From an uncultured Chloroflexia bacterium (GTDB lineage Bacteria > Chloroflexota > Anaerolineae > CG2-30-64-16): a DNA stretch of 64,000 nt. The notes beneath the pieces are model-generated. The model did not search any database, was not told the DNA's origin, and worked only from the letters and a program-made list of their open reading frames with translations. Location: the NCBI GenBank assembly GCA_963810095.1, contig CAWEMM010000011.1:96001-160000 (forward strand), written 5' to 3'. Made by a program: the position numbers and the translations under genes. The stretch's first letter is position 1, and each line of letters begins with the position of its first letter. Below, piece after piece: positions 1 through 59,608 of this stretch.

Positions 1-3000
1 TTCCGGTTCTGATAACGCAGTCCATGCTCAGGGATCGGGCGGTGAAGCTCGTTGTCGAACGCCCCGAGCTAGTCCTGATCCAGATGGATGCCGACGCGCC
101 GCAGCTGGCGTCGCGAAGCACAATGCCGCCCCCCGTTACAGTGAAGCCGGCGAACCTGGCCTACGTGATCTATACGTCAGGATCGACCGGGATCCCGAAA
201 GGGGTTTCGATCCAGCAGCGCGCCATCGCCCGCTTGATCTTCAATACGAACTACATCGACCTGCAGCCGGGCGACAAGATCGGGCAAATTTCCAATGCAT
301 CGTTCGATGCCGCTACCTTCGAGATATGGGGCTCGCTGCTGCGCGGCGGGGAGCTAATCGGGGTTGACAAGGAGACGGCGTTGTCGCCGGGCGCGCTCGC
401 AGCCTACCTGCGCCGCAGCGGGATCGGGATCATGTTCCTGACCGCCGCACTCTTCAACTACGTCGCTTCAGAGGAACCGACCGCCTTCAACACGATGAGC
501 TGCCTGATGGCGGGCGGCGAGGCCCTAGATCCTAGATGGGTGCGCCGAGTACTCGAGCACGGCGGACCGGCTCGCTTGCTGAATGGGTACGGGCCGACGG
601 AGAGCACGACATTTGCCACCTGGCATCCCATTTCCGAGGTGCCGCCGGACGCCCTGGGCGTGCCGATCGGAAGGCCCCTCTCGAACACGCAGGTCTATGT
701 GCTGGACCGTCACTTCCGCCCGGTCCCGATTGGTGTGTCTGGCGAGCTATGCATTGGCGGCGACGGGCTGGCGGTTGGCTACCTGAACCGGCCCGAGTTG
801 ACCGCAGAAAAGTTCGTGCCCAACCCGTTCGACGGCCACGATGCCCCGCGCCTCTACCGGACGGGCGACCTCGTGCGGTGGCTGCCAAATGGCAGCATCG
901 AGTTCCAGGGGCGTATCGATCACCAGGTAAAGATCCGCGGGTTCCGCATCGAGCTCGGCGAGATCGAGACCATGCTGGGACGCCACCCGCAGGTGCGCCA
1001 GGCGTTTGCGATGGTCAGCCCCGGCAACCTGGTGCAGGATGCATCGGGTGCGGGCGCGGACACGATCAGTTCGACAGAGCGCAAGATCGTGGCGTGCATT
1101 ATGCCGAAAGAGGGCGCAGCTGCGCCCAGCACATCAGACTTGCGCAGCCACTTGAAGCAGCATCTGCCCGACTACATGATCCCCGCTGCGTTTGTGCTCC
1201 TGGACGAGCTCCCGATCAACCCCAACGGCAAGGTTGACCGCGGCGCCTTACAGCGCATCGCACTGCAAGCGCTGAGCTCCGGTCCGGCCGAATCCGAGCG
1301 GGCATACGTCGCACCGCGCAGCCCGGTCGAGCGCTTCCTGGCCGAAAAGTGGCAGGAAGTGCTCGGCGTCGAGAAGGTGAGCGTCACCGACAACTTCTTC
1401 GAGCTGGGCGGCAACTCGCTGCAGGCCGCGGTGCTGACGAACCGGATGCAGGAGGAACTCGGCGCCAGCGCGCACGTGCGCGCGCTCTTCATGGCGCCTA
1501 CGATCGCCGACCTGGCCAACTACCTGGACGAGTATTACCCGGACGCGGTGGCGCGCATCGCCGGCATCGGCGTCGTCCCTGCGGCCAAGCGCGAACCCTC
1601 CGGCCCTGGTACCGGTGGGGCAAGCGCGGAGGGCGTTGGAACTGCGGGTGCGTCGGCTTCGCCCGCCGCCTACACCTTCCAGGAAAAGGTGCGCGCCGCG
1701 CAGGTGGACGATGCGAAGGTGGCACAGTTCGGACAGATCGTGCCGCCGCTGCCCGCTCGCGGCGAGAGCCCGCTCGAGATGACCGACCGGAACCCGCCGG
1801 CCGTGTTCGTCCTGTCGCCGCCGCGCTCCGGCTCCACGCTGCTGCGCGTGATGTTGGCCGGGAACCCGCAGCTCTTTGCGCCGCCTGAGCTCGATCTCAT
1901 GTCCTTCAACACGCTCGCCGAGCGCCGGGATGCCTTCTCCGGGAAGTTCCAGTTCTGGCTCGAAGGCCCGCTGAAGGCAATCATGGAACTGCGGCAGTGC
2001 AGCGCGGACGAAGCAGAGTCGATCATGGCCAGTTTCGAGCGCGCGGGTTGGTCGACCAAACGCTTCTACCGACAACTACAGGAGTGGATCGCGGAATCAC
2101 AGCGCGCGGCGAACTCCGGTCTCCCGGTGTCGCAGCGGATGCTGGTCGACAAGACCCCCGTCTACCCCATGGACCGCCACATCCTGGCCCGGATGGAGCA
2201 GGACTTCGAGAACGCCCGCTACATTCACCTGGTGCGGCACCCGTTCGCGACCGTCTACTCCTTCATGGAAGCCAAGCTGGAAGACATCTTCTTCCGGTGG
2301 GACCACCCCTGGAGCATGCGGGAGTTGGCCGAGCTGGTTTATCTCGTCAGCCATCGCAATATCCTCAACTTCCTGGAACAGATCCCGGCAGAGCGCCAGC
2401 ATCGCGTGTGGTTCGAGGAGATGGTCGGGGATGCGCCGCGCGTAATGCGCGGTATCTGCGACTTCCTGCAGATCGAGTTCCATCCCGATATGCTCGAGCC
2501 GTACAAGGGCGACAAGATGACCTCGGGCATCCGTCCGGGGCACCAGATGGTCGGCGACTTCAAGTTCTACCTGCGGAACAAGATCGATCCGAAAGCTGCC
2601 GATCGGTGGAAGCGTTTCAAGAAGGACGATCGGCTGGCCGAGCAGACCTGGGACGTCGCGCGGCGGCTCAATTACGAGTTGCCGGCAGACGAAGAAGGCG
2701 GGGAGTCCGCAGCCGGGTCGACGAACGGCACGGGGCACAACCAGAACGGTGCACAGAACGCGCCTATCCGCCGCCGGGGTGCGGACGAGCCGCCCGTGCT
2801 CTCCTTTGCGCAGGAGCGGCTGTGGTTTCTCGACCAGTTCGAAGGGGCCGGTGCTAATGGCGGAGGCAGCCCATTCTACAACGTGCCGGCGGCTGTGCGG
2901 CTTACGGGAAACATCGACGTAGGTGCGCTGCGGTGGGCTCTGAACACGATCGTGCAGCGCCATGAGGTGCTGCGCACAACCTTCGCCTCGGTCAACGGCG

Positions 3001-6000
3001 TCGCGTCGCCGGTCGTGGCAGAGCACCTCGAAGTCGAGCTGTCCGTGGTCGACCTGGCCTCGTTGCCCCAGGAGATGCGGGAAGTGGAGGCAGGGCGACT
3101 GGCGGCCGAAGAAGCGCGCCGGCCCTTCAACCTGGCGACGGGGCCCCTGCTCCGGGCGACGCTGCTTGACCTGGGAACGAGCGAAAACGGGCGCGAGACG
3201 GTCGCTCTCATCACCATGCACCATATCGTGTCTGACGGCTGGTCAGTCAATGTGTTCATCAGAGAGCTCGCGGCGCTGTACGGCGCGCACACGTCGGAAG
3301 CACGCCCGGGCCAGCCGGAGAATACGGCAGTTTTGCTGCCGCTGCCGATCCAGTACGCGGACTTCGCTGCCTGGCAGCGAAACTGGTTTGCAGGCCATGA
3401 CGACGCACACGCTGGCGGATCGCGGCGTTCGCCGCTGCAAGACCAGCTGGACTACTGGATAGAGCAGTTGAAGGGCCTGCCGGCCCGGCTGGACCTGCCG
3501 ACTGACCGGCCGCGGCCGGCAGTGCAGACGCTGAACGGCGAGCGCTACACCTTCACCCTGCCGGAGGAACTGACGGGGCGCATCAAGGCGCTCGCGCGCA
3601 GCGAGGGCGTAACCCTGTTCATGACGCTCCTGGCCGCGTTCCAGACGCTGCTGATGCGCTACACGGGCGAGGAAGATCTTGCCGTGGGCACCCCCATCGC
3701 AGGCCGCAACCGGCCCGAGATGGCGAACCTCATCGGCTTCTTCGTCAACACCCTGGTCATGCGCGGCGACCTTTCGTCTGCGCCCGGCGAGGCGCCGCTC
3801 ACCTTCCGCCAGTTGCTCAAGCGCACGCAGGCGACGGCGATCAAAGCCTTTGCGAACCAGGACGTGCCGTTCGAAACCCTGGTCGATACCCTGCAGCGGC
3901 AGGGCGCTCAACCCCAGCGCGACATGAGCCACACGCCACTCTTCCAGGTCATGTTCGCACTGCAGGATGCGCCGCTCCAGGCCATGCACGCGCCGGGCCT
4001 CACCCTCAGCCCGCTGCAGCCCGACACAAAGACGGCGAAGTTCGACCTGATGCTCAACGTGGTCGAACGGACCGACGTCCTGCGCTGCGCGCTCGAGTAC
4101 AACACGGACCTGTTTCGCGCCAGCACCGCCGTCCGGATGGCCCAGCACCTGCAAGTCCTGCTCCAATCGATCGTGTCTGACCTGCCGCGGCAGGGTCCAG
4201 ACACGCCGCTGGCGACGCTGCCGGTGCTCACGCCGGCCGAGCGGCAGATGATGCTGGCCGACTGGAACGACACGCGCACCGACGTGGATACGGGCGATAC
4301 GCTTGCCGCCCGATTCGAGGCGCAGGCGCGGAAGACGCCCGAGGCGCAGGCCGTGATCGCCGAGGTTGAACAAGGCGGCGCGGGCCATTCAACGTCGCTG
4401 ACTTACGCCGAGCTGGATGCCCGGGCCGGAGCGCTCGCCAAGCACCTCGCCTCGCTGGGTGTGGGCCCGGAGAGCATCGTAGGCTTGATGGCCGATCGCT
4501 CGCTCGATCTCCTGGTCGGGGTCGTCGGCATCTGGAAGGCAGGGGCCGCGTACGTGCCGCTCGATCCGGCATATCCCCCGGACCGGCTCGCATACATGCT
4601 CTCGGATTCCGGCGCACGGGTGCTGGTCACCCAGGCGCAGCACGCGCGGCCCGAGGTGGTGGACGATCTGGCAGTCGTCCTGCTCGACTCCGACGCATTA
4701 GGGGTTGCCGGCTCCACATCCGCCGAAACATCGGGGAGGCATGCTGCGCCCGACAACCTGGCCTACGTCATCTACACGTCGGGCTCGACAGGACGGCCGA
4801 AAGGGGTGTCGGTCACCCATCGCACTGCGCTCAACCTGGCCGCCGCGCTGCAGCGAGCCGCGTACGCCGAGCATGGTGACGAGCGGCCCCTGCGCCTCAG
4901 CCTGAACGCGCCGCTGTCGTTCGACGCGTCGGTCCAGCAGCTCGTGATGTTGACGCTAGGTCACACGCTGGTCGTCGTGCCCCAAGACGTGCGCGCGGAT
5001 GCCCCGGCGCTGCTCGCGTTCATCCGCCGCCAGCGCCTGGACCAACTCGACTGCGTGCCGTCGCAGCTCAAGCTGCTGCTCGAGGAAGGACTCCTGGCGG
5101 AGGATGCCGAGTGGCGGCCGTCCATCGTTTTCCCGGGCGGCGAAGCCATCGACGAGCCAACGTGGGCGACGCTGGCCGCCGCGCCCGAGACGCGCTTCTA
5201 CAACATGTACGGCCCGACCGAGTGCACGGTCGACTCGACCACGATCTCGGCTCATGTCGCGCCACGCCGACCCACGATCGGCCGGCCGTTGGCCAACGTT
5301 CGAGCCTACGTCCTCGACCGCAACCTGGAGCCCGCGCCCATTGGCGTGCCCGGCGAGTTGTACCTTGCCGGCGCGGGCGTCTCGCGCGGCTATCTCCACC
5401 GGCCCGATCTCACCGCGGAACGCTTCCTGCCCGACCCGTTTGACGCGCAGGAGACTCCGGGATTTGGGGCCGGCCGCATGTATCGCACGGGCGACCGAGT
5501 GCGCTGGTTACCCGACGGCACGCTTGAATTCCTGGGCCGCGTCGACTTCCAGGTGAAGGTGCGCGGCTTCCGCATCGAGCTAGGCGAGATCGAGGAGGCG
5601 CTGCGGTCACACCCTGGGCTCGCCGAAGCTGTCGTCCTGGTTGCCGAAGACGCGGGGCCCGCCGACGAAGGCATGTCGGGCACGAAGCGCTTAGTCGCGT
5701 ACGTCGTCCCGCGGACCGGCTCGGCAGCGGCGACGCCATTGAGCACGGCCGACCTGCGGCGTCACCTCCTCACCTCGCTGCCCGAATACATGCTTCCTTC
5801 TGCGTTCATGCTGCTCGATGCAATGCCGCTGACGCCGAACGGCAAGCTTGACCGGAAGGCGCTGCTGAAACTGTCGCCCGACGAAGCGGTGCGGACCGAA
5901 ACCGGCACGAGCTATGTCGAGCCGTCCGGCTTCGTGCAGACAACCCTGGCCGAGATCTATGGCCGGGTGCTCGGACTCGAGCGGGTCGGAATCAACGACA

Positions 6001-7668
6001 ACTTCTTCGAGTTGGGTGGGGATTCGATCCTTACCATCCAGGCCGTCGCCCACGCTGGCCAGGCAGGCATCACCATCACGCCGAAGCAGATCTTCCAAGC
6101 GCCGACCGTCAGCCAGTTGGCGCTGCTCGCCGAGGCGAGCGCGGCCGCCGGCGAGGCCGGCGTAATGGCGGACGAGCAGGGACCGGTGGAGGGTGACCTC
6201 CCCTTGACGCCCATCCAGCACCGCTTCTTCGAGACCGGCTTCGCACAGCCGCATCACTGGAACCAGTCGCTGCTGCTGGCGGTGCAGGCCCAGATCGATC
6301 CGAAGAGCATGCGGGACGCGGTCGCCGCGGTGCTCGGCCAGCACGACGCGCTCCGGCTGAGGTTCGCCGTGGTCGACGGCCAATGGCGTCAGTGGAATGC
6401 CGGCCTCTCGGACGACGTCCCATTCGAGAGCATCGACCTCTCGGCGCTCGACGAACCGGCTCGGGGCGAGGCATTGCGCGAGCACACTCTGCGCCTCCAG
6501 CAAAGCCTGAACGTCAGCCATGGGCCGCTCCTGCGGGTCGCATACTTTGACTTCGGCCCCAACGCGGCCGGGCGGCTGTTGACCATCGTCCACCACCTGG
6601 CAGTGGACCGGGTCTCCTGGCGGCTCATTCTGGAGGACCTCGGCTCGGCCTATGAACAGGCCTGCAGCGGCCGCGCGCCGCAGCTGCCGCGGAAGACGAC
6701 AGCCTTTCGCGACTGGGCCCGGCGGCTGGCAGAATACGCCGGATCGTCCGGCGTCGCGGCAGAAGCGAAGCGGTGGATGCAGTGGGGCGGGCAGGCCCTG
6801 CCCGCAGCGGAGGCGGCGCCCGTACCCTGCGATTACCCGGCGGGGAGCAACCTTGAAGCCGATGCGCGCACCGTCGCGGTCTACCTGAATGAAGCCGAGA
6901 CGGGAACGCTGATCCAAGAAGCCGGAAAAGCGTACGGGACCGAAGTGAGCGACGCGCTCCTCACCGCGCTCGGCCATGGCCTTCCGCCGCTGGACGGGCT
7001 CGCCCGCGTGCCTGGTGGAAGTCGAAGGCCACGGCCGCCAGGCGGAACTCGTCGGCGCATCGCTCGGAAACGGCGGCGAGAGCAAAATCAACCTCGCGCG
7101 CACGGTCGGTTGGTTTACATCCGTATACCCGGTCCTGCTGCAGATTCCGCCGCACGACGAGCCCGGCCAGGCGTTGATGGCCGTCAAGGAGCAACTCCGC
7201 GCCACGCCGAACGGTGGGATCGACTACGGGGTGCTCCGCTACCTGTCCACTGACCCGCACATCACGGCGGTCATGCAGGGCTTGCCGCGACCCCAGATCA
7301 GCTTCAACTACCTGGGCCAGTTCATCCAGGAAACGACTGAGGCGGCGTTCGGCAGCGCGGTGTTCCGGCCCGCGCCGGAAAACAGCGGACCCGACCACGC
7401 CGCGGAGCACCAGCGGCAGTATGCGCTTGACGTGACAGTGAGCGTATTTGCCGGCAAGCTTCGGGTCGAGTTTACGTACAGCGATGCGCAATTTGCCCCG
7501 GAGACGGCCGAGACTCTCGCGGACTTCTATGTCGACGCGCTCCGCGGCTTGATCCAGCACTGTCTTTCCCCCGAGGCCGGAGGATACACCGCATCGGACT
7601 TCGCCGACACCGGCTTGAGCGACGAAGGGGTGCGGGATTTGTTGGCAGAGCTCGGCGAGATCGACTGA
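1..7668 (+). CDS. NRPS gene 1 (5'-truncated by window): A(partial)-PCP-sulfotransferase-C(LCL)-A-PCP-E-COM; one apparent 1-bp frameshift at ~6975
   Basis: Frame is open from position 3 (PVLITQSMLRDR), so ATG 24 is not the real start. Motifs: [28 protein letters not shown]; PCP DNFFELGGNSL; ST PRSGSTLLR; C HHIVSDGWS; second A; PCP GGDSI; E domain PLTPIQ..HHLAVD. The E domain continues in ORF 6976..7668 (VEGHGR, RTVGWFTSVYP, FNYLGQF, TASDF). Confidence 0.95.
1791..2686 (+). other. Embedded PAPS-dependent sulfotransferase domain (CurM/OLS-type) between PCP1 and C2
   Basis: VFVLSPPRSGSTLLRVMLAG..LFAPPEL (5'-PSB loop), LVDKTP, YIHLVRHP (3'-PB), NILNFLEQIPAERQH, ending LNYELP. These motifs occur in the same order as in the CurM sulfotransferase as I recall it. 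Confidence 0.9.
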
Positions 7669-7693
7669 ACCGACACACGCGGATAGGACTGGC

Positions 7694-14469
<6,776 letters not shown>

Positions 14470-14473
<4 letters not shown>

Positions 14474-17400
14474 TGGAGTTGCCGGACAACTTCGCCGACC
14501 TCACGCCAGAACAGCAAGAGCTCCTGGCGCTGCTGCTGGCCGAACAAGGCGTCGAAATGTACGACTCCGCCCTTGCTCCGCGGAAGCAGCCCGGCGAAGA
14601 CGCGCCGTTGTCCTTCTCACAGGCAAGGCTCTGGTTCCTCGACCAACTGGAGCCGAACAGCCCGATGTACAACATGCCAGCCGCGGCCCGGTTGCACGGT
14701 ACTTTGTCTGTTCCGGTCTTGCAAGCCTGCCTGGATGAGATCGCGGCGCGGCATGAGGTGCTGCGGACCATCTTCGTGCGCGGCGATGACGGCCAGGCCG
14801 TGCAGCATATTCTTCCCGAGCTTCACGTGCCGATCACCACGGCCGACCTGAGCGGACTCGCTGCCGCTGCGCAGGAGCAAGAGATTCTCCGATTGGCTTC
14901 GGCAGAGATTCAGCGCCCGTTCGATCTGGCCCGCGGCCCGCTGCTCCGCGTCATGCTGTTGGTGTTGTCCGAGAGCGACGTTCTGCTGCTGCTCAACATG
15001 CACCACATCATCACGGATGGGTGGTCAGTCGGTGTCTTCCTCCGAGAGTTAGGCGCACTTTACGGGGCCTTCGCCAAGGGACGCCCTTCGCCTTTGACCC
15101 CGCTGCCGCTGCAATACGGGGATTATGCCCTTTGGCAGCGCGAGAGTCTGCGGGGCCAGACCCTGGAGCAGCAACTGGCGTATTGGCGTGAAGCACTCCG
15201 TGATGCACCGGCAGTCCTCGAGCTGCCGCTCGACCGGCCGAGACCCCCCGTGCAGACACACCGCGGCGCGGCCCTGGACGTCACTATCGGGGCTCCCGTG
15301 CAGGCCGCTTTGAATCAACTCGCTCAATCCGAAGGCGCCACGCTCTTCATGACCCTGCTGGCCGCTTTCCAGGTGTTCTTATCGCGCTATTCTCGCATGT
15401 CAGACGTCTGCATAGGCACCCCGATTGCGAACCGCACCCGGGGCGAGCTGGAGGGACTGATCGGCTTCTTTACGAACACCCTGGTAATTCGCGCCCGCAT
15501 CGCGCCTGGCATGACCTTCCGCCAGTTCCTGCGAAGCGTTCGCGATGCGACGCTGGCCGCCTACGAGCACCAGGACGTTCCGTTCGAGCAAATCGTCGAG
15601 GCCGTACATCCCGAGCGCACCATGAGTTACTCGCCGCTGTTCCAGGTGATGTTTGCGCTTCAGAACGTGCCTCAGCAGGCCGTCGAGCTCCCCGGCATCA
15701 GACTTAGTTCGGCATCATTCCCCAGCGTTACGGCGAAGTTCGACCTCACATTGAATCTCGGCGAGCGCGGAGACGGTATCGGCGGCAGTATCGAGTACAA
15801 CTTGGACCTGTTTGACGAGACGACGGTCCAGCGGATGATTCAAAACCTGGGAGTCTTGATCGAAGCGGTGGCGATCGATCCCGACCAGGCCGTCGGCGCC
15901 CTGCCGATTATGACGCATACGGAACGCGCGCTCGTGATGGACGCGTGGAACGATACCGCGATGGCCTTCCCCGCCGATACGACGATTCATGCGCTCATCG
16001 CGGAATGGGCCGAGCGCACGCCAGACGGCGTGGCCGCAGAGTTTGCCGAACTGACCGAGCAAGGGCTCCGTACCACGCCCCTCACGTACCGCGAGCTTCA
16101 CGACCGGGCCAACCGCCTCGCCCACCATCTGCGACAACTTGGCGTCGGCACAGATGCGGAGCGAAGCAGCACATTTGTCGGGTTATCCGTGACGCGCTCG
16201 CTCGAAATGGTTGTGGGCATCCTGGGCATCCTCCGAGCCGGCGGCGCGTACTTGCCGCTGGACCCCGGCTACCCGGCCGACCGCCTCGCCTTCATGATCG
16301 CAGACTCGGGAACCCGCATTCTGGTCACAGAAGGGGCGATTGCCTCCCGGCTGCCCCTATCCGGCGCGGGAGTTCCGCCTGACCTGGCCGTCGTACGGAT
16401 TGACGAGGACTGGAACGAGATCGCTGCCCAGCCCCCCACCGATCCCCACGCTGCCGTGGGACCCGACGATCCCGTCTACTGCATCTACACGTCCGGTTCG
16501 ACGGGCCGGCCCAAGGGCACCCCCGTCCGCCACCGCAGCATTTGCAGCCTTGCCACGGCCGCCGCGCGCGACTTTGACATGGCTCCCGGCAAGAGAGTTC
16601 TGCAGTTCGCCGCGTTCTCCTTCGACGCGTCTGTCTGGGAGACCACGATGGCGCTGCGCAACGGCGCCACGCTGATCTTGGCCAGGCAGGAAGTCCTCGC
16701 TTCGGGGCCTGAGCTGCTCCGGCTACTCAAACTTGCCCGCATCACCACCGTCATTCTACCTCCCGCGCTCGCAGCCGTGCTGGAGCCGGTCCCGCTGCCC
16801 GACCTTACCACGGTGCTGTGCGGGGGCGAGCGGGTCACAAATCAGATGGTGCGGCGATGGGCCCCGGGGCGGCGCTTCATAAATGCGTACGGCCCGACTG
16901 AGACAACGGTGTGCGCAACCATGCGCGTCTGCCACGAAACAGAGGTGTGGCCGTTCGGGGGCCCGCCCATTGGACGCCCGGTCGCGAACCTCCGCTGCTA
17001 CGTGGTGGACGATGCCGGTGCGGGTCTGCAGCTTCAGCCGGTCGGAGTGGCAGGCGAGCTGGTTATTGCGGGGGTTGGCGTCTCGCAGGGATATCTTAAC
17101 CGCCCCGAACTGTCTGCCGAACGCTTCATTGCGGAGCTACCGGCCCCGGTCGCCCGTTCTGCGAACGGCGCAGAGGCAGGCCCCATCTCCGGCCCGCTTT
17201 ACCGCACGGGCGACCTCGTGCGCTGGTTGCCCGGCGGCGAGATCGAATACCTGGGCCGGATGGATGACCAGGTGAAGGTGCGTGGGTTCCGCATCGAGCT
17301 TGGCGAGATCGAATCGGTCCTGCGGGGGCATCCCGACGTCAAGGACGGCCTCGTCACTGTGCGCGGCGACGCGCTTGTGGGCTACTACATTCCCAAGGGG

Positions 17401-20400
17401 GGTGAGGCCACGATAGAGACGGGGCGGCCTGCTGCAACTGAGCTGCGCGCACATCTGCGCCAACACCTGCCCGAGTACATGGTGCCGGCTGTCTTCGTGC
17501 CAATGACGTCCTTCCCGCTGTCGCCCGCCCAAAAGGTGGACCGGCGCTTGCTGCCTCCACCGAACCAGGTCGCAGGGAATGAGTACGTCGCGCCACGCAC
17601 GCCGACCGAGGAGCTCCTGGCGAGCGTCTGGACGCAGCTTCTGAACGTACCGCGTGTGGGCGCCGACGATAGTTTCTTCGAGCTGGGCGGGCACTCGCTT
17701 TCGGCCACGCAGCTTGTCTCCCGCGCCCGGGCAGCATTTGGCGTCGAGGTGCCGCTGCGGGCGCTGTTCGAGACGCCCACCTTGTCGGGGCTCGCAGCCG
17801 CGATTGACCACCTGCGGGCTGCCGCGCTGGACACAGTTGCGCCCCCGATTGCCAGCGTGCCGCGACAGGGGGATGCAGACGGCAAAGTGCGCCTACCGCT
17901 CTCCTTTGCGCAGCAGCGCCTGTGGTTCCTCGATCAGTTCGAGGGTGCCGAGAACGGGGGCACCTCGCTCTACAACATTCCGGTCGCCGTGCGCTTGAAG
18001 GGCCGCCTGGACGGTGCGGCTCTGTCGAACACGCTCGCAGCGCTTGCCGAGCGGCACGAGTCGCTGCGTACCTCGTTCGAGAGCGTCGACGGGAAGCCGG
18101 TCCAGGCCATCGCGCCGCACGGCGCGCTCTCCCTCAACGTAGTCGACCTATCGGACGTGGAGGAGGCTGAGGTAGAGGCGGCGATCATGACCCACGCCGA
18201 GGCGGAGGCCGGCAGGCCGTTCGTCCTTGCCAGTGGCCCCTTGGTTCGGGTTACGCTCCTGCGCCTGCACGCCGAGGAGCATGTCCTGCTCTTTACGATG
18301 CACCACATAATCTCGGATGGGTGGTCCAGCGGCGTCCTGATCCGCGAGTTCGGCGAGTTGTACGCGGCGCTCGCGTCGGGCGCAAACATTCAGCTTGCTC
18401 CACTCGCCCTGCAGTATGCGGATTATGCCGTCTGGCAGCGGAAGTGGCTACTCGACCGGGCGGGCAAAGACGACCGGGACGAGGCAGCGACGCCGTTGCA
18501 GAAACAGCTGGCTTACTGGCGCGAGGCCCTGAAGGGTGCGCCGGCGCTGCTCGAGCTGCCCACCGACCGGCCCAGGCCGGCGGTCCCATCGCACGGCGGA
18601 GCGGCCATTGCATTTGAGCTGCCGGCGGACCTCACCGAGCGCGTGCGGCGGCTTAACCGCGAGGAAGGTGCCACTGTCTTCATGACCTTGATGGCCGCTT
18701 TCCAGGCCCTGCTGTCGCGCCTGAGTGCGCAAACGGATATCTTGGTGGGGACCCCGGTCGCCAACCGCACGCATGCGGAGTTGGAAGGGATTATCGGTTT
18801 CTTCGTCAACACGCTAATCATGCGGGCCCAATTCGGCGACGGGCCCTCGTTCCGCCGGCTGCTGGGCCAGGTTCGAACCGCGGCACTCGGCGCCTACGCA
18901 TACCAGGACGTCCCGTTTGAGAAGCTCGTGGACGAGCTCGAAGTCGTGCGGGACGCCAGCCACAGCCCCCTGTTCCAGGTGATGTTTGTCTGGCAGGAGC
19001 AGCGTCAGAGCGCCATGTCCGCGCCCATCACGCTGCCCGGCCTGAGCCTTTCGCCGATCCCAGTTCACGGCGGCACGGCCACGTTTGACCTCACCCTCGC
19101 GATGGCCGACGGCCCGCGGGGGTTGAGCGGTTGGCTCGAGTACTCCACCGACTTGTTCGATCGCTCCACAGCAGAACGCTTCGTCCGGCTGTTCGAGACC
19201 CTGCTGACCAACGTCCTGGCCACTCCCGACCTCCCGATCGCCCAGGTTCCGCTATTGACCGCCGAGGAACGCCGCATGGTCGTCGAGGACTGGAACGACA
19301 CGGCGGTTCCGGTTCCGGCGGTGTCGCTCCATGGGGCGTTCGAGCAGCAGGTCGCCCGCACTCCAGACGCCGTGGCGCTCGTGTTTGCCGGCGACGGCGG
19401 ATCGCGGCTGCGCTGCGAAGTCACGTATGCCGAGCTGAACCGCCGCGCGGACGGGGTGGCAAGCGAGCTGCAGCGGCTCGGCGTACGGCGAGAAGAGATC
19501 GTCGCCATCTCGGTCGAGAAGTCGGTCGAGCAGATCGCGGGCTTGCTCGGCATCCTGAAGGCGGGCGCGGCCTACTTGCCCATCGACCCCGCGTACCCCA
19601 CCGAACGCATTGCGTACCTGTTGGCCGACTCCGGTGCACAGGTCTTGCTCACGCAATCGCACCTCGCACAAGGCTTCGCCGGGCTGCACCTGCGCCACGT
19701 CGTCTGCCTTGACGAGTTCGTGGAGGCTCAGCGCGCCGGGCAAGCAGCCCTGGCGTCGCAGCCTCTGGCCCCAGCCCCGCACACGAGCGCGGACAGCCTG
19801 GCCTATGTGATCTACACCTCGGGGAGCACCGGGCAGCCCAAAGGCGTCATGGTCGAGCACCGCAACATTGTCAACCATGCGCATGCGCTGATGGCGCAAA
19901 CCGGCATCGGCCCGGGCGACCGGATGCTCCAGTTCGTCTCCCTGAGCTTCGACGCGGCCGGCGAGGAGTTTTACCCCACCCTGCTCTCGGGTGCGACCCT
20001 TGTCCTGCCCGCGGACAGCCAGGCGCTGCTGGGAACCGAGCTGCCGGCCTTCTGCGAGGTGCATGGCATCACCCTCCTGCACATGCCGGCGACGGCATGG
20101 CACGGCGTGATTGACGGCCTGTCGGCCCAGGGGGAGGCGTGGCGCGGGCCACTTCGCCTGCTGATGCTGGGGGGCGATGCCCCGGACCCGGCGAGGCTCA
20201 TTGCGTTCCGGAAGCTCCTCGACAGGGAAATCCCGTTCATTAACCTCTACGGCCCAACCGAAGCGACCATCACCGCAACAACATTCCAGACGACCGGCCT
20301 CACGGCGCTGCAGAAGGTGCCGATCGGCCGTCCCATCGCCAATGCGGCGGTCTACGTGTTGGACGCGGCCGGGCAACCCTCGCCTATCGGCGTGCCGGGC

Positions 20401-22650
20401 GAAATCTACATCGGCGGCGCCGGCGTCGCACGGGGCTACCTCGGGCGACCCGAGCTGACGGCAGAGAAATTCGTACAGGGCGAGAACCTGACCGGCAGCC
20501 CGGCCACCCGCCTCTACCGCACGGGGGATCTCGCGCGCTGGCTGCCCGACGGTAATCTGGAGTTCGTTGGCCGGGCCGACGACCAGGTCAAGGTGCGGGG
20601 CTATCGCATCGAGCTGGGCGAGATCGAGGTCGCGCTTGCCGCGCACCCAGAGGTGAAGGAGTGTGCGGTGCTGGCCCGGGCGGACGCCGGTGATGGGGGA
20701 CGGCGGCTCGTGGCATACTTCGTGCCCGCAGCCGATCCGGCGCCTTCGGTCGCAGATCTCCGGGCATTCCTGTCCAAGATCATTCCGGACCACATGGTGC
20801 CTGCGGTCTTCGTGCGGCTGCCGGCGCTGCCGCTCAATGCGCACGGCAAGGTCGATCGCCGCGCTCTGCCCGCACCGTCGGAGGCCCAGCAGGCCGACAG
20901 CGGGGCCGAGTTCCTGGCGGCCACGACCCCGGCCGAAAGGGCGCTCGCCGACATCTGGCAGCAGGTGCTCGGCGTGCCGCACGTCGGGGCTCACGACAAC
21001 TTCTTCGAGCTGGGCGGCGATTCGATCCTGTCCATCCAGGTCGTGTCGCGGGCGCAACCGGGCGGGACTGACCATCACGCCCAAGCAGCTGTTCCAGGCG
21101 CCGACGCTCTCCGCGCTGGCCGCGCTGGCAGGCACGGCCACGACCGGCTCTGCCGAGCAGGGGCCCGTGACGGGCCCGGTCCCGCTTACGCCGATTCAAC
21201 GCTGGTTCTTTGAACCAGGCATGTGGGGCGGCGAGGGGGCGAACCCCAACCACTGGAACCAGTCCGTACTGCTTTCCGTGCGCCAACAGCTTGACGGGGA
21301 GAGCTTGCGGGCCGCCGTCGTCGCGCTCGTAGAACACCATGACGCGCTCCGGCTGCGCTTCGTCGAGACGGATGACGGCTGGCAGGCGGAACATGCGCCT
21401 GCAGACCCGTCGCTCCCCACACCTTTCGACCATCTGGATCTCTCGCAGCTGGCCGAAGCAGAGCTCTCGTCCGCGGTCGAACGGCTGTCGGCCGAGGCGC
21501 AGAAGAGCCTGGATATTTCTCGCGGTCCGCTGCTCCGTGCGGTATACTTCGACGCCGGAGCCAAGCGCCCCGGGCGCCTGCTGCTCGTCATCCACCATCT
21601 TGCGGTCGACGGCGTATCCTGGCGGGTGCTTCTCGAAGACCTGCAGAATGCGTACGGCGAGCATATGCAGACCGGCCGGGTACAGCTGCCGCCCAAGACA
21701 AAGTCGTTCAAGAGCTGGGCCGAAAGCCTGGCATTGCACGCACGGTCCGAAGCGGTCGCCGGCGAACTCGACTACTGGCTGGAGCGGACCGGCGGGTGGA
21801 TTCCGTCCCTCCCCACCGACCACCCGGGCGGTGCGGCGGACAACACGGAAGCAGGTGTGGCGCAGATTGGCGTCACGCTGTCGCAGGAAGACACCGAGGC
21901 GCTGCTGACCCAGGCAAACGCGGCGTATCACACCGAGAGCCAGGACCTCCTGCTCGCCGCCCTCGCACAGGTCATAGAGCAGTGGACCGGGACGCCCACG
22001 CTGTACGTACATCTTGAGGGCCACGGCCGCGACGAGATCGACGAGGCCGAAGACGTATCGCGCACGATCGGGTGGTTCACGACAATGTACCCCGTGCGGC
22101 TCGACCTTCCGTGGGGCAGTGCCGATGCCCCGGGCGAGGCGCTTGTGGCAGTGAAGGAACAGCTTCGTGCGGTGCCCCGCCACGGGCGCGGTTACGGCCT
22201 GCTGCGCTACCTCGGCAGCGACGATGCGCGGGACGCGCTGGCATCCCAGCCCGAGCCCGAGATTTCGTTCAACTACCTGGGGCAGTTTGACCAGGTGCTC
22301 GCCGGAAGCGGCCAGGAAGCACTGCTCGGGCCCGCACCCGAGACCGCAGGACCGGACCGGGCCCCCGAGAACCGCCGCAGTCACCTGATCGACGTGACGG
22401 CCGCGGTTGCCGGGCACCGTCTCGGCGTGTCCTGGAGCTACAACCGGTCCCTGCACGACGAAGCGACCGTGCAGCAGTTGGCGCAAACGTATCTGCAGGC
22501 CCTGGCAAGGTTGATCGACCACTGCCGTTCGCCGGAAGTTGGCGCCTATACGCCCTCGGATTTCCCGCTAGCCGAGCTTGATCAGAAGCAGCTCGACAAA
22601 GTGCTGAAGCAGATGCAGCCCGGCCCCGCGCCGGCTGCTTCGGAGAACAC

Positions 22651-22654
<4 letters not shown>
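14470..22654 (+). CDS. NRPS gene 3: C(LCL)-A(Leu-like)-PCP-C(LCL)-A(unassigned, polar/basic)-PCP-E-COM; apparent 1-bp frameshift at ~21055
   Basis: ORF 14470..21213 reads to PCP GGDSILSIQVVSR. ORF 20663..22654 continues with NRAGLTITPKQLF, PLTPIQRWF, HHLAVDGVSW, EGHGR, TPSDFPL. ATGA overlap with gene 2. Confidence 0.94.
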
Positions 22655-43713
<21,059 letters not shown>

Positions 43714-43714
<1 letters not shown>

Positions 43715-44822: not shown

Positions 44823-44873
44823 CCGGGCAAGTTTCTGCGCAGCATCGCACCAACTGACGACTAAGGAGACGGC

Positions 44874-46208
44874 ATGCAAGAGCCGCACGACATGCAAGAG
44901 CCCGACAAGCTGTTCAATCGCAACTTTGTGCTGCAGTGGCAGGGCCAGACGATCAGCCGGCTGGGCTCTCAGATATTCATGGCCGGCCTGCTCTTCTGGA
45001 TCAAGGGCGCCACCGGCTCGCCCGCGCTTATGGGCACGATCGCAATGGTCTCCAGCCTGCCTGGCGTGATCCTGATGCCGGTCGGCGGCGCGCTGGCAGA
45101 CCGCTTTCCGCGCCGCGTAATTATCATCCTCGGCGACCTGATTCGGGGCTTGGCGCTCCTCGGACTGACCGCGCTGATGGTGCTGCAGCCTCAAGCCATT
45201 CCCGCCATCCTCGCCGGCCTCTTCATCGTGTCGGTGATCAACGGCATTATCGGTTCGTTCTTCGGCCCCGCGCTGGCCGCCACCATCCCCGATCTCGTCC
45301 CGCAGTCCCGCGTGACGGCTGCCAATTCCCTCGGCCAGCTTTCACTGCAGGGGTCGCTGTTCATCGGGCAGGCCCTGGGCGGATGGCTCTTCGAAATGGT
45401 CGGCGCAGTCTGGCTCTTTCTGATCAACAGCCTCTCGTTCCTGTACTCGTCGGGCAGCGAGGTGCTGGTCAAGATCCCGCAGACCATTCCCGAGCGGAAG
45501 GGCAACTGGCGCGAGCAGTTCCGCACGTTCGGCCGGGAAATCCTGGAGGGCTTCCATTACGTGTGGGCGAAGCCCGGGCTGCGTGAGATGCTCTTCCTGT
45601 CGGCCGCGCTGAGCTTCTTTACCGCGCCCATCCTCGTGCTGATGCCGTTCTACGTTGAGGATACACTGCACGCAACCGCCAGGTGGTACGGGTTCCTCCT
45701 GTCGGGCTTCGCGGTCGGCACGATTCTCGGCTACGCGCTTGCGGGCGTCCTTCGGCTGCGCGCCACCCGCCGGGGCGCGGTCATGATGGTGATCTCCGTC
45801 CTTGTCCCGCTCGGGTTCATCGGCCTGGGTCTGGTCCGCACGACGGGCGCCGCGCTGGCCCTGACCATCCTGGGCGGCCTGGCGACGGGGTATGTCACGG
45901 TGAATATCACCGCCCTGATCCAGGTGACGACCCCCAGCGAGATTCGCGGCCGGGTTGTCGGCCTGCTCGCCGCGCTGTCGAGCGCACTCACTCCGATCGG
46001 CAGCGGGCTTGCCGGCATCGTCGCGGAGTTGCTGGGCAAAAATGTGGCGGTCGTCTTCATTGCGTGCGGCGCGCTCACCGCGGCGGTCGCGGTCTTCCTT
46101 TCGACACGCCGCAGCTACCGGGCTATAATGTCGACCGAGTTCGACCAGGCCCGCCAGCAGCGGCCCAGGCCGTCGAGGCCACCCGAACCAAAGCTGCCGC
46201 CGGCGTAA
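44874..46208 (+). CDS. MFS transporter (DHA3/EntS-like), probable peptide exporter
   Basis: NRNFVLQWQGQTISRLG, GGALADRFPRR (MFS motif A), about 12 hydrophobic segments, TPSEIRGRV. RBS aaggag upstream. Confidence 0.9.
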   Translation: MQEPHDMQEPDKLFNRNFVLQWQGQTISRLGSQIFMAGLLFWIKGATGSPALMGTIAMVSSLPGVILMPVGGALADRFPRRVIIILGDLIRGLALLGLTALMVLQPQAIPAILAGLFIVSVINGIIGSFFGPALAATIPDLVPQSRVTAANSLGQLSLQGSLFIGQALGGWLFEMVGAVWLFLINSLSFLYSSGSEVLVKIPQTIPERKGNWREQFRTFGREILEGFHYVWAKPGLREMLFLSAALSFFTAPILVLMPFYVEDTLHATARWYGFLLSGFAVGTILGYALAGVLRLRATRRGAVMMVISVLVPLGFIGLGLVRTTGAALALTILGGLATGYVTVNITALIQVTTPSEIRGRVVGLLAALSSALTPIGSGLAGIVAELLGKNVAVVFIACGALTAAVAVFLSTRRSYRAIMSTEFDQARQQRPRPSRPPEPKLPPA

Positions 46209-46225
46209 GCGAGACGAAACCACCG

Positions 46226-47002
46226 ATGACCAGCGCAACGCCAAACAAGTTCAATACCTGGATCTCGTGCCCGCGACCCAACGCAGCCGCCCGGGTGCGG
46301 TTGTTCTGTTTCCCTTACTCGGGTGCAGCCGCGAATGTTTTCTATCCGTGGTCCGACGTGCTGCCTGCAACCTGGGAAGTCTGCCCGGTGCAACTGCCCG
46401 GCCACGGAACGCGGCTAAACGAGCCGCTGGAAAAGCGCCTCGCCCTGCAGGTCGAAGCCGCGGCTGCCGGCCTCGCGCCGTACCTGGACAAGCCATACGC
46501 GTTCTTCGGCCACAGCATGGGCGCGCTGCTGGCGTTCGAGCTGACCCGCCACCTGCGCCAGGCCTCGGCGCCCCTGCCGCTCCACCTTTTCGTCTCGGGC
46601 CACCAGGCCCCCCAGCTCCCCGACCGCAACCCGCCGCTGCACGGGCTGCCGCACGACGAGTTCGTCGCCCGGCTGCGCGAGTTGAACGGCACGCCCGAAG
46701 AAGTGCTGAAGCACACCGAGCTCCTGCAATTGCTGGTGCCGATCCTGCGCGCGGACTTCGAGGTCTGCGAGACTTACGTGTATCCATCTGAACCGCCGCT
46801 GTCTGTCCCCATTTCCGCTTACAGCGGCCTGGGCGATGACTATGTGAACCGCGCCGAACTTGACGCGTGGCGCGAGCAGACAACCGGCACGTTCAGCGTC
46901 CGGATGTTTCCCGGCGATCATTTCTACATCAACACCGCGCGCCCGTACCTGCTCCAGGCGCTGGCGCGCGAACTCGAACAGACGCTCGCGACCCGGGCAT
47001 AG
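46226..47002 (+). CDS. Type II (editing) thioesterase
   Basis: [36 protein letters not shown]. The true ATG is at 46226 within ORF 45683..47002. Confidence 0.93.
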
Positions 47003-47064
47003 CACCGCAGCGAGCAATACACCCGTTTTCCGCGCAACTTTATCGTTGCGCAACAGGAGGCAAC

Positions 47065-47286
47065 ATGGGCTGGGACGATCGTGAGGACACCACGGTTTAC
47101 CGGGTGGTCGTGAACTATGAGGAGCAATACTCCATCTGGCCGGTGGACCGCGAGATCCCCGCGGGCTGGCGCGATGGGGGCAAGAGCGGACCGAAAGCGG
47201 AGTGCCTGGCCTACATCAAGGAAGTCTGGACCGACATGCGGCCGCTTAGCCTGCGCAAGCAGATGGATGAGGCGCAAGGGGAGTAG
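47065..47286 (+). CDS. mbtH: MbtH-like protein
   Basis: [39 protein letters not shown] aggagg precedes ATG 47065. Confidence 0.96.
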
Positions 47287-47299
47287 GAAGGGACGGCGG

Positions 47300-48103
47300 G
47301 TGCAGCCGCTTGCTCTGGCTGCATCCGCCCCCGCCGGCACGATGCTGCTTCCCCTCTGGGCGCCGCCAACCCGACTCTTCCCACTTGGACCGGCTGGTCT
47401 CCACCTGTGGCTCGTCGAACTCGAGCTCTCGCCGCACGAGCTCGAGCAGGCGCGCCAGGTGCTCACCGCCGGCGAGGTCGAACGCGCCCGGCGGTTCCAT
47501 TTCGACCATGACCGGCGCCGCTTTGTCGCCGCGCACGCCGCGCTGCGTACGGTCCTGGCGCAGTACGCCGGTCTTGCGCCGCGCCAGCTTGCCTTCCTGG
47601 CCACCCCTCATGGCAAGCCGTACCTCTCCCCCGACGTCAAGTATGCCGTCCCCGACCTGGCGTTCAACCTCTCGCATTCTGGCGAGCTTGCCCTCATCGC
47701 CGTCACCGCCGGTCGCCGTGTGGGCGTCGATATCGAGCTCATCCGGCCCGCGCTGGCCGAGGGCAACATCGCAGAGCGCTTCTTCTCTCCCGGCGAAGCG
47801 TGTGAGCTGGCCGCGCTGCCCGAGCACGAACGAGCCAGCGCCTTCTTCCGCTGCTGGACACGTAAAGAAGCGTTTGTCAAGGCCCGCGGCGAGGGCCTCT
47901 CGCTCCCTCTCGCCAGCTTCGACGTATCCCTGCGGCCCGACCGGCCGGCCGCCCTGCTTCGCACTTCACCAGACCCAGACGAAGCGGGCCGGTGGACCCT
48001 GGATGCTGTGCCTATCGACACCGAAGCGGAGTATGAGGCAGCAGTCGTCGTCGAAGGCCCACTGGCAGAAACGGCCCTCTGGAGGTTTCTTAGAAATACT
48101 TAA
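47300..48103 (+). CDS. sfp: Sfp-type 4'-phosphopantetheinyl transferase (start GTG 47300 or ATG 47342)
   Basis: HGKPYL, FNLSHSG, VGVDIE, FFRCWTRKEAFVKARGEGL. Confidence 0.93.
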   Translation: MQPLALAASAPAGTMLLPLWAPPTRLFPLGPAGLHLWLVELELSPHELEQARQVLTAGEVERARRFHFDHDRRRFVAAHAALRTVLAQYAGLAPRQLAFLATPHGKPYLSPDVKYAVPDLAFNLSHSGELALIAVTAGRRVGVDIELIRPALAEGNIAERFFSPGEACELAALPEHERASAFFRCWTRKEAFVKARGEGLSLPLASFDVSLRPDRPAALLRTSPDPDEAGRWTLDAVPIDTEAEYEAAVVVEGPLAETALWRFLRNT

Positions 48104-48223
48104 GAACCCTCCGTATCCTTCCGCGAATTCCCCCGTTGATGGAGTAAGTAACCGGTTTCAGATGCATTGCAGTTGCAGGCACGCAGACATCGCGGCCGGC
48201 AACGTGTCCCTAAGGAGACGCAG

Positions 48224-48748
48224 ATGGACGAGCACGAGCTCCTTCGCCGCTACCATGCCGGGGAGCGCGATTTCATGGGCGCAAAGCTTGCATTCTCGCA
48301 CCTGTCGGGCAGCAAGCTTCACGGCGCCAACTTGAGCGGGGTAAGTCTTTTCTCGGCGCGCTTGAGCGGCGCGGATCTGGCGGATACGGATCTGCGCGGT
48401 GCAAACCTGACGGGCGCCGAACTCGATGGGGCAAATCTCACGGGTGCGAAGCTGAATGCCGCCTCCCTTACCGGCGCAAATCTCGCCCGGGCCGACCTGC
48501 GGGGCGCGCGCACCGATCTGAGCGCGGCCAACCTGGCCTGGGCCAATCTCGGCGGCGCACGCTTGGCCGCGGCCAACCTGAGCGGGGCCAACCTGACCGG
48601 CGCACAGCTCGCGCATGCCGACCTGAGCGGCGCGGACCTGAGCGGCGCCGATCTTACGGACGCGGTCCTTGACGGCGCGATCCTGCGAGGTGTGAACTTC
48701 GCTAACGCCCGCCTGGCGGGCTCGTCGCTGGCCGGCGCGCTGCGCTAA
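48224..48748 (+). CDS. Pentapeptide-repeat protein (A(D/N)LxG type)
   Basis: MDEHELLRRYHAGERDF followed by roughly 30 A[DN]L[ST]G-like pentads. RBS taaggag. Confidence 0.92.
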   Translation: MDEHELLRRYHAGERDFMGAKLAFSHLSGSKLHGANLSGVSLFSARLSGADLADTDLRGANLTGAELDGANLTGAKLNAASLTGANLARADLRGARTDLSAANLAWANLGGARLAAANLSGANLTGAQLAHADLSGADLSGADLTDAVLDGAILRGVNFANARLAGSSLAGALR

Positions 48749-52276: not shown

Positions 52277-52306
52277 CAAGCCTCCTCGAGCCGCCGTGCG
52301 CTCAAG

Positions 52307-59597: not shown

Positions 59598-59608
59598 GTA
59601 CGTTCCCT

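Follow-up and report, generated by a model that had tools for sequence, protein, structure and literature searches.

The closest described relatives of the sulfotransferase (ST) domain considered here are those of CurM, from the curacin A pathway, and OLS, both organized as ACP-ST-TE (PDB IDs 4GBM and 4GOX). In these two proteins the ST domain follows a KR-containing PKS module and is itself followed by a decarboxylating TE, which leads to a terminal alkene. The domain in the present cluster resembles them over its whole length, shares the PAPS loop PRSGSTLL, and is likewise fused directly behind a carrier. In contrast to CurM and OLS, the preceding carrier (T) belongs to an NRPS module of the Ile/Val type with the KR two modules upstream, the domain that follows is an ordinary C domain, and the motif PPELHLL is replaced by PPELDLM. 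The start of the line, FAAL-ACP-KS followed by NRPS modules, is that of mycosubtilin/iturin-type lines, but the cluster lacks their aminotransferase domain, contains an AT, and has a second PKS module with a KR after the first amino acid.

ST domains inside an NRPS polypeptide are also present in OciA (cyanopeptolin 1138/oscillapeptin E) and DysB (dysinosins), which we compared by description. These domains are described as lying in the loading region with a glyceric-acid (FkbH-type) starter and as probably leaving their sulfate on the finished peptide (PMC2533009, PMC6520454), whereas the ST domain of our cluster is located mid-line after the Ile/Val module, and Pfam searches detected no FkbH-type glyceric-acid loading family in any of its synthetases. 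Our literature searches on ST domains in such lines returned only loading-module and terminal examples. A separate sulfotransferase gene beside the synthetases, as in the present cluster, is known from the aeruginosins (AerL), compared here by gene position. In Planktothrix, presence of a stand-alone sulfotransferase gene correlates with a sulfated peptide (PMC10744761).

Architecture of the assembly line

The window (the whole stretch of 64,000 nucleotides that was analyzed) contains five synthetase genes on the + strand with 12 A, 12 T, 11 C, 2 E, and 1 TE domains, as determined from a domain map built with the cluster's own seed domains and from Pfam profile searches run alongside. On the same contig, the assembly line begins ~19.3 kb ahead of the window (near -19300); the cluster measures ~68 kb (about 76,700-144,750 of the contig), and the complete line comprises 2 PKS and 14 NRPS modules, 12 of the latter inside the window. 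The original prediction of a 12-or-more-module NRPS with five synthetases, two E domains, and a TE agrees with what the window holds, as does the set of exporter, type II thioesterase, MbtH, and PPTase that it had listed. The features are as follows.

1-~7600, + strand: first synthetase (Pfam, domain map)
1..1232, beginning at -276 outside the window, + strand: module 3 A domain, code DAFFMGGTFK, Ile/Val-like (domain map, code, Pfam)
1335..1526, + strand: module 3 carrier (T), GGNSL in place of the usual GGHSL (domain map, carrier motif)
1797..2501, + strand: in-line CurM-type ST domain, PF13469 (Pfam, PDB matches, domain map)
2790..7578, + strand: module 4, C-A-T-E, A code DAQDFGMVDK (Gln-like), carrier motif GGDSI; frame change near 6980 within E
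6195-7578 and 21179-22549, + strand: E domains (sequence comparison)
7694..14473, + strand: synthetase, modules 5-6, C (post-E type)-A(DASTIAAIGK)-T-C-A(DAWTIAAVCK)-T (Pfam, domain map, codes)
14470..22654, + strand: synthetase, modules 7-8, C-A(DAWILGAVCK)-T-C-A(DAEHMGLITK)-T-E; frame change near 21100; TIGR01720 in the second E
22651..29478, + strand: synthetase, modules 9-10, C (post-E type)-A(DAEHVGAVTK)-T-C-A(DAWTVAAVCK)-T (Pfam, domain map, codes)
29475..43714, + strand: synthetase, modules 11-14 and TE, codes DVGEAGSIDK, DLTKIGEVGK, DASTIAAIGK, DASTIAAIGK; 14 frame changes
9098..10730, 37461-39241, and 40828-42605, + strand: three-copy repeat (C end and whole A domain), 96-97% identical
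42953-43672, + strand: TE (Pfam, domain map)
43711..~44816, + strand: stand-alone sulfotransferase, PF13469; frame change near 44640
44874..46208, + strand: MFS exporter (Pfam)
~46283..47002, start approximate, + strand: type II thioesterase, PF00975 at residues 206-429 of ORF 45683-47002
about 47068..47286, + strand: MbtH-like protein, PF03621, E 1.1e-21
~47342..48103, start approximate, within ORF 47117-48103, + strand: Sfp-type 4'-phosphopantetheinyl transferase (PPTase) (Pfam)
48167..48748, + strand: pentapeptide-repeat protein, the final + strand gene (Pfam)

The line has the organization of a modular type I NRPS, with repeated C-A-T modules carrying the Pfam Condensation, AMP-binding, and PP-binding domains, a TE for release, and the PPTase, MbtH, and type II thioesterase as helper genes. 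The HHxxxD motif is present in 16/16 C or E domains, the carrier serine in 16/16 carriers, and the initial D (Asp235) and final K (Lys517) in all 14 A codes. The two E domains are 47% identical to one another and about 20% identical to the C domains, each is preceded by a carrier reading GGDSI, and directly after each comes a separate type of C domain, the two copies of which are 53% identical. Together with the domain map, these comparisons bear out the D-residue positions and the TE release proposed previously. A second extraction reproduced the 12 specificity codes of the original prediction with no change of letter or order, the code positions having been set on conserved motifs from GrsA numbering; PDB chain 1amu ranked only tenth in the structure search with the A domain. 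The amino acid names attached to the codes, taken from general code tables, are presumptive, and for DQENIGAVTK, DAEHMGLITK, and DAEHVGAVTK we know of no nameable match.

The original prediction also advised retrieving the upstream DNA for the starter module, and it is there, on the same contig, that FAAL-ACP, KS-AT-ACP-C-A-T, and KS-AT-KR-ACP-C-A-T are found in this order. Both FAAL fragments score best against fatty acyl-AMP ligase models, yet under the whole-protein cut-offs because the gene is split; they are followed by a PP-binding fragment and then a KS, the arrangement of FAAL-primed loading. The code of module 1 is DASTIAAIGK (Tyr-like) and that of module 2 DQENIGAVTK.

A PKS/NRPS hybrid that is primed by a FAAL and has 14 NRPS modules points to a lipopeptide as the product. 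A fatty acid would be loaded by the fatty acyl-AMP ligase, extended by one ketide unit on KS-AT-ACP, and joined to a Tyr-like residue by the first C-A-T, whereupon KS-AT-KR-ACP would turn this residue into a gamma-amino-beta-hydroxy (statine-type) unit. The KR contains neither the LDD nor the Trp motif by which KR stereochemistry is typed. Thirteen further NRPS modules would follow, with residues 4 (Gln-like) and 8 epimerized to D, before release by the TE and, as the last step, export by the MFS pump. A colinear reading predicts acyl-ketide-Tyr*-ketide(OH)-X-Ile/Val-D-Gln-Tyr*-Phe-hydrophobic-D-X-X-Phe-Orn-Asn-Tyr*-Tyr*. The line should accordingly build a fatty-acid-capped, 14-residue peptide that is undescribed to our knowledge; literature searches of main texts returned no described product for this cluster. 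The peptide is probably sulfated. We assign a probability of roughly 0.7 to the reading in which an uncultured bacterium of the Anaerolineae (Chloroflexota) carries an orphan hybrid PKS/NRPS line for a lipopeptide.

The in-line sulfotransferase domain and its carrier

The original prediction named two different sulfotransferases. Two are indeed present, but the first is a domain within the first synthetase rather than a separate gene, positioned between the carrier of Ile/Val module 3 and an ordinary C domain, and a single open frame of 3049 residues spans C-A-T-ST-C-A-T. The in-line domain matches CurM (PDB ID 4gbm, E 9.9e-58) and OLS (PDB ID 4gox, E 3.5e-50), and its PAPS loop PRSGSTLL aligns with that of 4gbm. 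The motifs PRSGSTLL, PPELDLM, LVDKTP, and HLVRHP are kept across its homologues (n = 121 domains), and the His of PPELHLL in CurM and OLS corresponds to E or D in the clade of NRPS-embedded ST domains. Apart from the PAPS loop, the stand-alone enzyme shows no relationship to the in-line domain; it matches PF13469 only, plus a weak match to PDB ID 2zq5 (E 2e-4). These two are the only PF13469 matches in the genome, which also encodes an APS kinase.

The carrier in front of the ST domain belongs to a distinct type. Among the homologues, carriers preceding ST have D or N at the His position of GGHSL in 93/113 cases, as compared with 8 GGHSL and 1 GGHSM among 11 comparison carriers not located before an ST. 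This special GGNSL-type carrier argues that the ST domain works on module 3's own carrier. The C domain that follows contains the motif HHIVSDGWS; of the 12 remaining ordinary C domains of the cluster, 11 share 50-54% identity with it and the divergent first one 39%. A search limited to proteins of 526-2000 residues gave 978 matches to the ST domain, and on this sequence evidence the carrier-sulfotransferase-condensation layout is common in metagenomes.

Predicted target and fate of the sulfate

Sulfate transfer by the in-line ST is predicted from its homology. With PAPS as donor, the domain most likely O-sulfonates a hydroxyl of the intermediate held on the module 3 carrier. The module 3 residue is Ile/Val-like and has no hydroxyl, and the target would therefore lie upstream. 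Sulfation of this residue itself as a route to a dehydroamino acid was rejected, the A code being of the Ile/Val type in the window and in 8/8 loci with the same cassette.

The beta-hydroxyl made by the KR is our tentative first choice of target, held at less than even odds. The block C-A(D[QA]ENIGAxTK)-T-C-A(Ile-type)-T-ST-C recurs in eight loci (L004-L010, labeled Anaerolineae or Anaerolineales, and L012, labeled Zhuqueibacterota), with a KR-ACP just upstream in seven; in the eighth, L004, the contig is too short. Because these cassettes are orthologous, the association of KR with ST counts as approximately one observation and not as eight. In its full form, this choice describes a mid-line ST, paired with a dedicated carrier subtype (GG[D/N]S), that reaches back to a KR-made statine-type hydroxyl, leaving either a sulfate ester or a sulfate that departs to give a vinylogous amino acid, with no need for a dehydratase domain; stated this specifically, it is unlikely to be correct in every part. 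If true, it would be an on-line tailoring step new to NRPSs. The unrelated stand-alone enzyme probably sulfates a different hydroxyl.

The Tyr-like phenol is a doubtful second choice. Placed in a complete scheme, in which the in-line ST sulfates the phenol of residue 1, the stand-alone enzyme sulfates other Tyr-like residues, and the statine-type hydroxyl stays free, it appears rather unlikely. The clade probably accepts phenols, as 5 of 19 complete A codes before ST in related T-ST-C modules are of the Tyr type, and the residue 1 code is DASTIAAIGK both here and in the related cluster G024 and DASTIAAVGK in G014. In those Tyr-type cases, however, the ST stands directly behind the Tyr module, as opposed to two modules later in the present line, and the solved relatives act on secondary alcohols.

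The in-line ST could instead be an activating enzyme as in curacin A, sulfonating the beta-hydroxyl as a leaving group so that an alkene forms (a vinylogous Tyr-type unit). This would replace the missing dehydratase, and no sulfate from the in-line ST would remain in the final product. Both of the nearest solved relatives, CurM and OLS, are activating sulfotransferases that make a leaving group and not a lasting ester, a TE follows the ST in 65/121 related domains as it does in CurM, and PKS module 2 (KS-AT-KR-ACP) has no dehydratase match in Pfam. Elimination of the CurM type goes together with hydrolysis and decarboxylation by the TE, but in our cluster the in-line ST is followed by an ordinary C domain and not by a TE, and the target hydroxyl lies two residues away from the thioester. 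The known NRPS-embedded ST domains, moreover, are tied to retained sulfate on glyceric acid (PMC2533009, PMC6520454). We regard this activating role as distinctly improbable.

Intactness, host, and related clusters

The window contains 17 frame changes, and the last synthetase gene (29475-43714) accounts for 14. These are very probably assembly indels in a cluster that is intact in nature, and the earlier advice to polish indels was well placed. The haem genes hemA, hemC, and hemB, located just upstream of the cluster, are each split across two frames. Near-identical metagenome contigs have one base fewer at 40601 and at 41424, which restores the frame of C12 or A12, and one such contig has 15 extra bases at 41421 and also restores the frame in the A12/C12 region. 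Frame repair by independent contigs is clear at only 2 of the 17 sites, stretches without contig cover being uninformative. A 1-base contig difference at 35600 was not counted, as it lies outside the frame-overlap zone in contigs of only ~97% identity. Over frame junctions, the two records that cover 34735-35054 and 39013-39213 have one base less than the window, with gap positions unlisted, and are consistent with repair. Assembly errors could be concealed by the 96-97% identical repeats of modules 5, 13, and 14. The contig belongs to a MAG (88.5% complete, 4.8% contaminated), and the maximum share of sampled words in any sequencing run is 0.22.

A decaying pseudogene cluster, in which the frame changes are real and the strain makes no full-length product, would fit the number and concentration of these changes, the location of several outside long homopolymers, and a gap of 14 nt, atypical of read error, that A12 shows against A3. 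It is nevertheless very unlikely given that three neighboring housekeeping haem genes are split in the same way, that the frame is recovered in independent contigs at 40601 and 41421-41424, including the site of the 14-nt gap, that all catalytic motifs checked are intact (C/E HHxxxD, carrier Ser, A codes), and that the corresponding open frames in relatives, of 3138 and 3199 residues, are unbroken.

The assignment of the host to the Chloroflexota, made originally from the DNA alone, is upheld by HemL, encoded on the same contig: among its best 120 matches, all 15 that carry an organism name are from Chloroflexota (6 Caldilinea/Caldilineaceae, 4 Anaerolineae/Anaerolineaceae, and 5 unspecified). 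Genomes of the same genus and family match loci labeled Anaerolineales or Anaerolineae bacterium. Two genomes of the same family, G014 and G024, contain colinear clusters with codes identical or one letter apart at modules 1, 2, 4, 6, and 10-13; the module 3 code is two letters off that of the window and of the same Ile/Val type, and the summary count of codes identical or one letter apart is 9/14. Both carry the MFS exporter, the second sulfotransferase (49-50% identity), MbtH (87-93%), and the PPTase; of the two, only G014 has a confirmed type II thioesterase. As judged by these comparisons, the cluster is a member of a conserved family.

The pentapeptide-repeat gene is conserved as well: in G014, a homologue with 66% identity comes immediately behind the PPTase. 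It ends at 48748, exactly where the span of the original prediction ended, although it had not been named there. Such a gene at the cluster end might mark a topoisomerase-directed product.

We know of no NRPS product characterized from the class Anaerolineae, and literature searches on NRPS products, lipopeptides, or sulfotransferases of Chloroflexota/Anaerolineae returned no characterized NRPS product. If a single example were worked out, it would account for a large class of peptides predicted to be sulfated or sulfate-activated and would also supply a tailoring domain for engineering. The in-line ST block is present in 6 of 24 other same-family genomes searched, and an ecological role of the conserved cluster family is therefore probable in these Anaerolineae, which are abundant and for the most part uncultured.

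Architecture, borders and host of the cluster

Domain order was determined from Pfam scans and a domain map with profiles seeded with the cluster's own domains. Both place five co-directional synthetase genes in the window, with the accessory genes downstream on the same strand, and together they recovered the complete downstream line of the original prediction (five synthetases, two E domains, TE, exporter, type II thioesterase, MbtH and PPTase). The start of the line, which had been expected on the upstream contig, is located on the same contig, upstream of the window.

Genes of the line (window coordinates unless prefixed C11, the contig; ST, in-line sulfotransferase domain)
From about C11:76,670, fatty acyl-AMP ligase (FAAL) and carrier fragment, best scores to FadD32-type and other FAAL models
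Upstream of window, KS-AT-ACP-C-A-T, A code DASTIAAIGK
Upstream of window, KS-AT-KR-ACP-C-A-T, 2726 residues, A code DQENIGAVTK
1-~7600, synthetase (C)-A-T-ST-C-A-T-E, gene start upstream of window
7694-14473, synthetase C-A-T-C-A-T
14470-22654, synthetase C-A-T-C-A-T-E
22651-29478, synthetase C-A-T-C-A-T
29475-43714, synthetase C-A-T-C-A-T-C-A-T-C-A-T-TE
43711-~44816, stand-alone PF13469 sulfotransferase
44874-46208, MFS exporter
~46283-47002, type II thioesterase
About 47068-47286, MbtH-like gene (PF03621, E 1.1e-21)
After the MbtH-like gene, same strand, Sfp-type PPTase
48167-48748, pentapeptide-repeat gene, closing the operon

The synthetase crossing the window start comprises 3049 residues up to the point where its E domain changes frame, and the full line consists of the FAAL, two PKS modules and 14 NRPS modules. 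This domain order predicts a lipopeptide in which the first amino acid would be elongated to a gamma-amino-beta-hydroxy (statine-type) unit. Haem-biosynthesis genes upstream of the FAAL set the left border, and the right border is placed at ~48750 because the genes beyond are on the other strand. These occupy 50539-62840 (- strand) and encode two large surface proteins (SdrD_B; ten InlB B-repeat domains in a protein of 1753 residues), followed by an ABC exporter of MacB type (HlyD-like, two FtsX fragments, ABC ATPase), in which FtsX appears divided, perhaps by another frameshift. Genes for a MerR-type regulator and a radical SAM/SPASM protein precede the haem operon (8064-10177 of L001, the contig stretch upstream of the window) and have no apparent link to the cluster. 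The pentapeptide-repeat protein resembles the HetL, MfpA and Qnr models at scores below threshold and is possibly a self-protection factor.

The contig (C11) is 366 kb long, with the window at its positions 96001-160000, and belongs to an assembly of 16 contigs (6.13 Mb, 65% G+C) rated at 88.5% completeness and 4.8% contamination. The proposed Chloroflexota host is supported by HemL, encoded on the same contig, for which all 15 organism-named proteins among the best 120 database hits are from Chloroflexota (6 Caldilinea/Caldilineaceae, 4 Anaerolineae/Anaerolineaceae, 5 unspecified). It is also supported by the genome search, which ranked G007 in the same genus and G014, G019, G021 and G024 in the same family, the matching contigs of these relatives coinciding with loci titled Anaerolineales or Anaerolineae bacterium.

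Frame changes, specificity codes and predicted D-residues

There are 17 frame changes in the window, one each in E1, the T6/E2 junction, C9, C12 and the stand-alone sulfotransferase, two each in T10 and A12, three in A10 and five in A11; the upstream genes contain at least four more. These are attributed to assembly indels on two grounds. The hemA, hemC and hemB genes adjoining the cluster (L001:10187-13438, equal to C11 68,187-71,438) each lie in two overlapping frames, indicating that such errors reach housekeeping genes of this assembly too, and contigs from public metagenome runs matching at 98-99% deviate from the window exactly at the frame breaks. At 40601 (C12 junction) one base is missing from the matching sequence, which restores the reading frame. 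At 41421-41424, where A12 is 14 bases short compared with its near-identical copy A3, contigs of two runs have one base fewer at 41424 and one of the two also carries 15 additional bases at 41421; by base arithmetic, these differences restore the A12 frame. Two other contigs are one base shorter than the window across junctions in A10 and A11 (gap positions not listed), and a difference at 35600 is ambiguous. The cluster is very probably intact in nature.

The ten Stachelhaus positions were read from an alignment of every A domain to a profile built on the intact domains, with the frame pieces of broken domains aligned separately; positions were set on conserved motifs by what we take to be the GrsA numbering. 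The 12 codes extracted in this way from the window are identical, letter for letter and in order, to those first read there. D-residues are predicted at NRPS modules 4 and 8, the positions originally assigned, from three features. The two E domains share 47% identity, against about 20% with C domains, both carry HHLAVDxVSW, and the second also matches TIGR01720; the carriers preceding them read GGDSI; and the C domain after each is of a distinct type, with 53% mutual identity and 25-31% identity to ordinary C domains.

The in-line sulfotransferase domain and its putative target

The in-line ST spans residues 1232-1460 of the 3049-residue protein (window 1797-2501), matches PF13469 and aligns with the sulfotransferase domains of CurM and OLS, whose structures are solved (E 9.9e-58 and 3.5e-50), including the PRSGSTLL PAPS loop. 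Two different sulfotransferases had been predicted, and the difference holds, the PAPS loop being the sole element common to the two, but one is a domain inside a synthetase and the other a stand-alone gene. No other PF13469 match occurs in the genome, which encodes an APS kinase elsewhere.

A database search with the ST domain, limited to proteins of 526-2000 residues, gave 978 hits, of which the best 120 (P0001-P0120) were analyzed. Among these, the complete ST is followed by TE in 65, by C in 38 (39 when the window's own domain is counted) and by the protein end in 17. The 19 complete A codes preceding ST in T-ST-C modules are 7 Thr-, 5 Tyr- and 6 Ile/Val-type and 1 other, and the 51 complete codes in T-ST-TE modules include 12 Thr-, 4 Ser- and 7 Tyr-type and no Ile/Val-type. 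The carrier before ST has D or N in place of the His of GGHSL, giving GG(D/N)S(I/L), in 93/113 cases; of 11 carriers elsewhere in these proteins, 8 read GGHSL and 1 reads GGHSM. By this motif, pre-ST carriers form a subtype of their own, comparable to the carrier before E domains. In the window, the carrier preceding ST (1335-1526) reads GGNSL, compared with GGHSL in the 12 NRPS carriers that feed C or TE and GGDSI in the two before E, which argues that the in-line ST would act in cis on the cargo of its own carrier.

In the same protein set and at loci L013-L019, C-A-T-ST-TE modules of about 1700 residues abound in Acidobacteriota-labelled records, and many of them have A codes without an assignable residue, such as DGFFHGEIWK. 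At a Thermoanaerobaculia locus (L013), three ST domains occur in a single row of modules. Two Saprospiraceae-labelled loci (L020, L021) have the order A-T-ST-KS-AT-T-C-A-T-TE, which adds ST-KS to the ST-TE and ST-C contexts.

The carrier before ST is loaded by an Ile/Val-like module (DAFFMGGTFK), and this residue has no hydroxyl. When the chain reaches ST, its hydroxyls are the one placed at the beta position by KR and the phenolic one of the first, Tyr-like residue; we favor the former as the putative target, because the solved relatives presumably act on beta-hydroxyacyl carriers. The block KR-ACP-C-A(D[QA]ENIGAxTK)-T-C-A(Ile-type)-T-ST-C-A(DAQDFGMVDK)-T-E occurs at seven Anaerolineae/Anaerolineales-titled loci and one from Zhuqueibacterota, with KR visible in 7/8 and the eighth contig too short; these cassettes are orthologous and hence not independent observations. 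The sulfate ester is probably retained in the product (probability about 0.6). The ST shares its homology with the activating CurM and OLS domains, and sulfate serving only as a leaving group is an improbable alternative here, since the C domain that follows is ordinary and gives no hint of coupled elimination; retention of the ester is preferred on this basis.

Conservation, apparent module exchange and relation to known systems

The sulfotransferase region was found in 7/41 genomes searched: the source genome and 6 of the 24 others from its family. It was found in 0/16 genomes of other families in the class (one per family). Colinear clusters were found in G014 and G024. Their codes are identical to those of the window or one letter off at modules 1, 2, 4, 6 and 10-13, two letters off at module 3 with the Ile/Val type kept, and different at modules 5, 7, 8, 9 and 14. 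The last module is a Thr module in both; the G014 line ends by Pfam in a terminal condensation-like domain with no TE after it, and the domain map shows this arrangement in G024 as well. Both relatives keep the MFS exporter, the PPTase, the second sulfotransferase at 49-50% identity and MbtH at 87-93%; a type II thioesterase was confirmed for G014 alone, and a 66% identical pentapeptide-repeat homologue lies at the same place in G014 and was not found in the G024 stretch searched. The G014 cluster (L031:8788-18753) ends with a separate C-A(Thr)-T-C protein lacking TE, and between its type II thioesterase and MbtH genes lies an additional carnitine O-acyltransferase-like gene, whose homologue in the source genome (42-45% identity) lies outside the cluster on contig C7.

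Modules 5, 13 and 14 of the window share a 1.6-1.8-kb block covering the C end and the whole A domain (9098-10730, 37461-39241 and 40828-42605; 96-97% DNA identity). Together with the other codes at modules 5 and 14 in G014 and G024, this near-identity suggests that recombination within the cluster replaced the A domains of these two modules with that of module 13; a repeat-driven assembly error retains a small probability as the source of the three copies.

The in-line ST is a homologue of the CurM and OLS domains but lacks their context of a same-module KR and a following TE. OciA and DysB likewise embed a sulfotransferase inside an NRPS, in glyceric-acid loading regions (PMC2533009, PMC6520454), and in aeruginosin clusters stand-alone sulfotransferases correlate with sulfated peptides (PMC10744761). 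Among the open-access papers and preprints searched, none was found to deal with T-ST-C modules in a mid-line position or with this family of clusters. The original observation is confirmed and its interpretation supported, with the lipid/PKS start and the in-line sulfotransferase as extensions. The mid-line ST is a known tailoring domain in an unstudied position, and the cluster, an orphan, belongs to a conserved Anaerolineae family.
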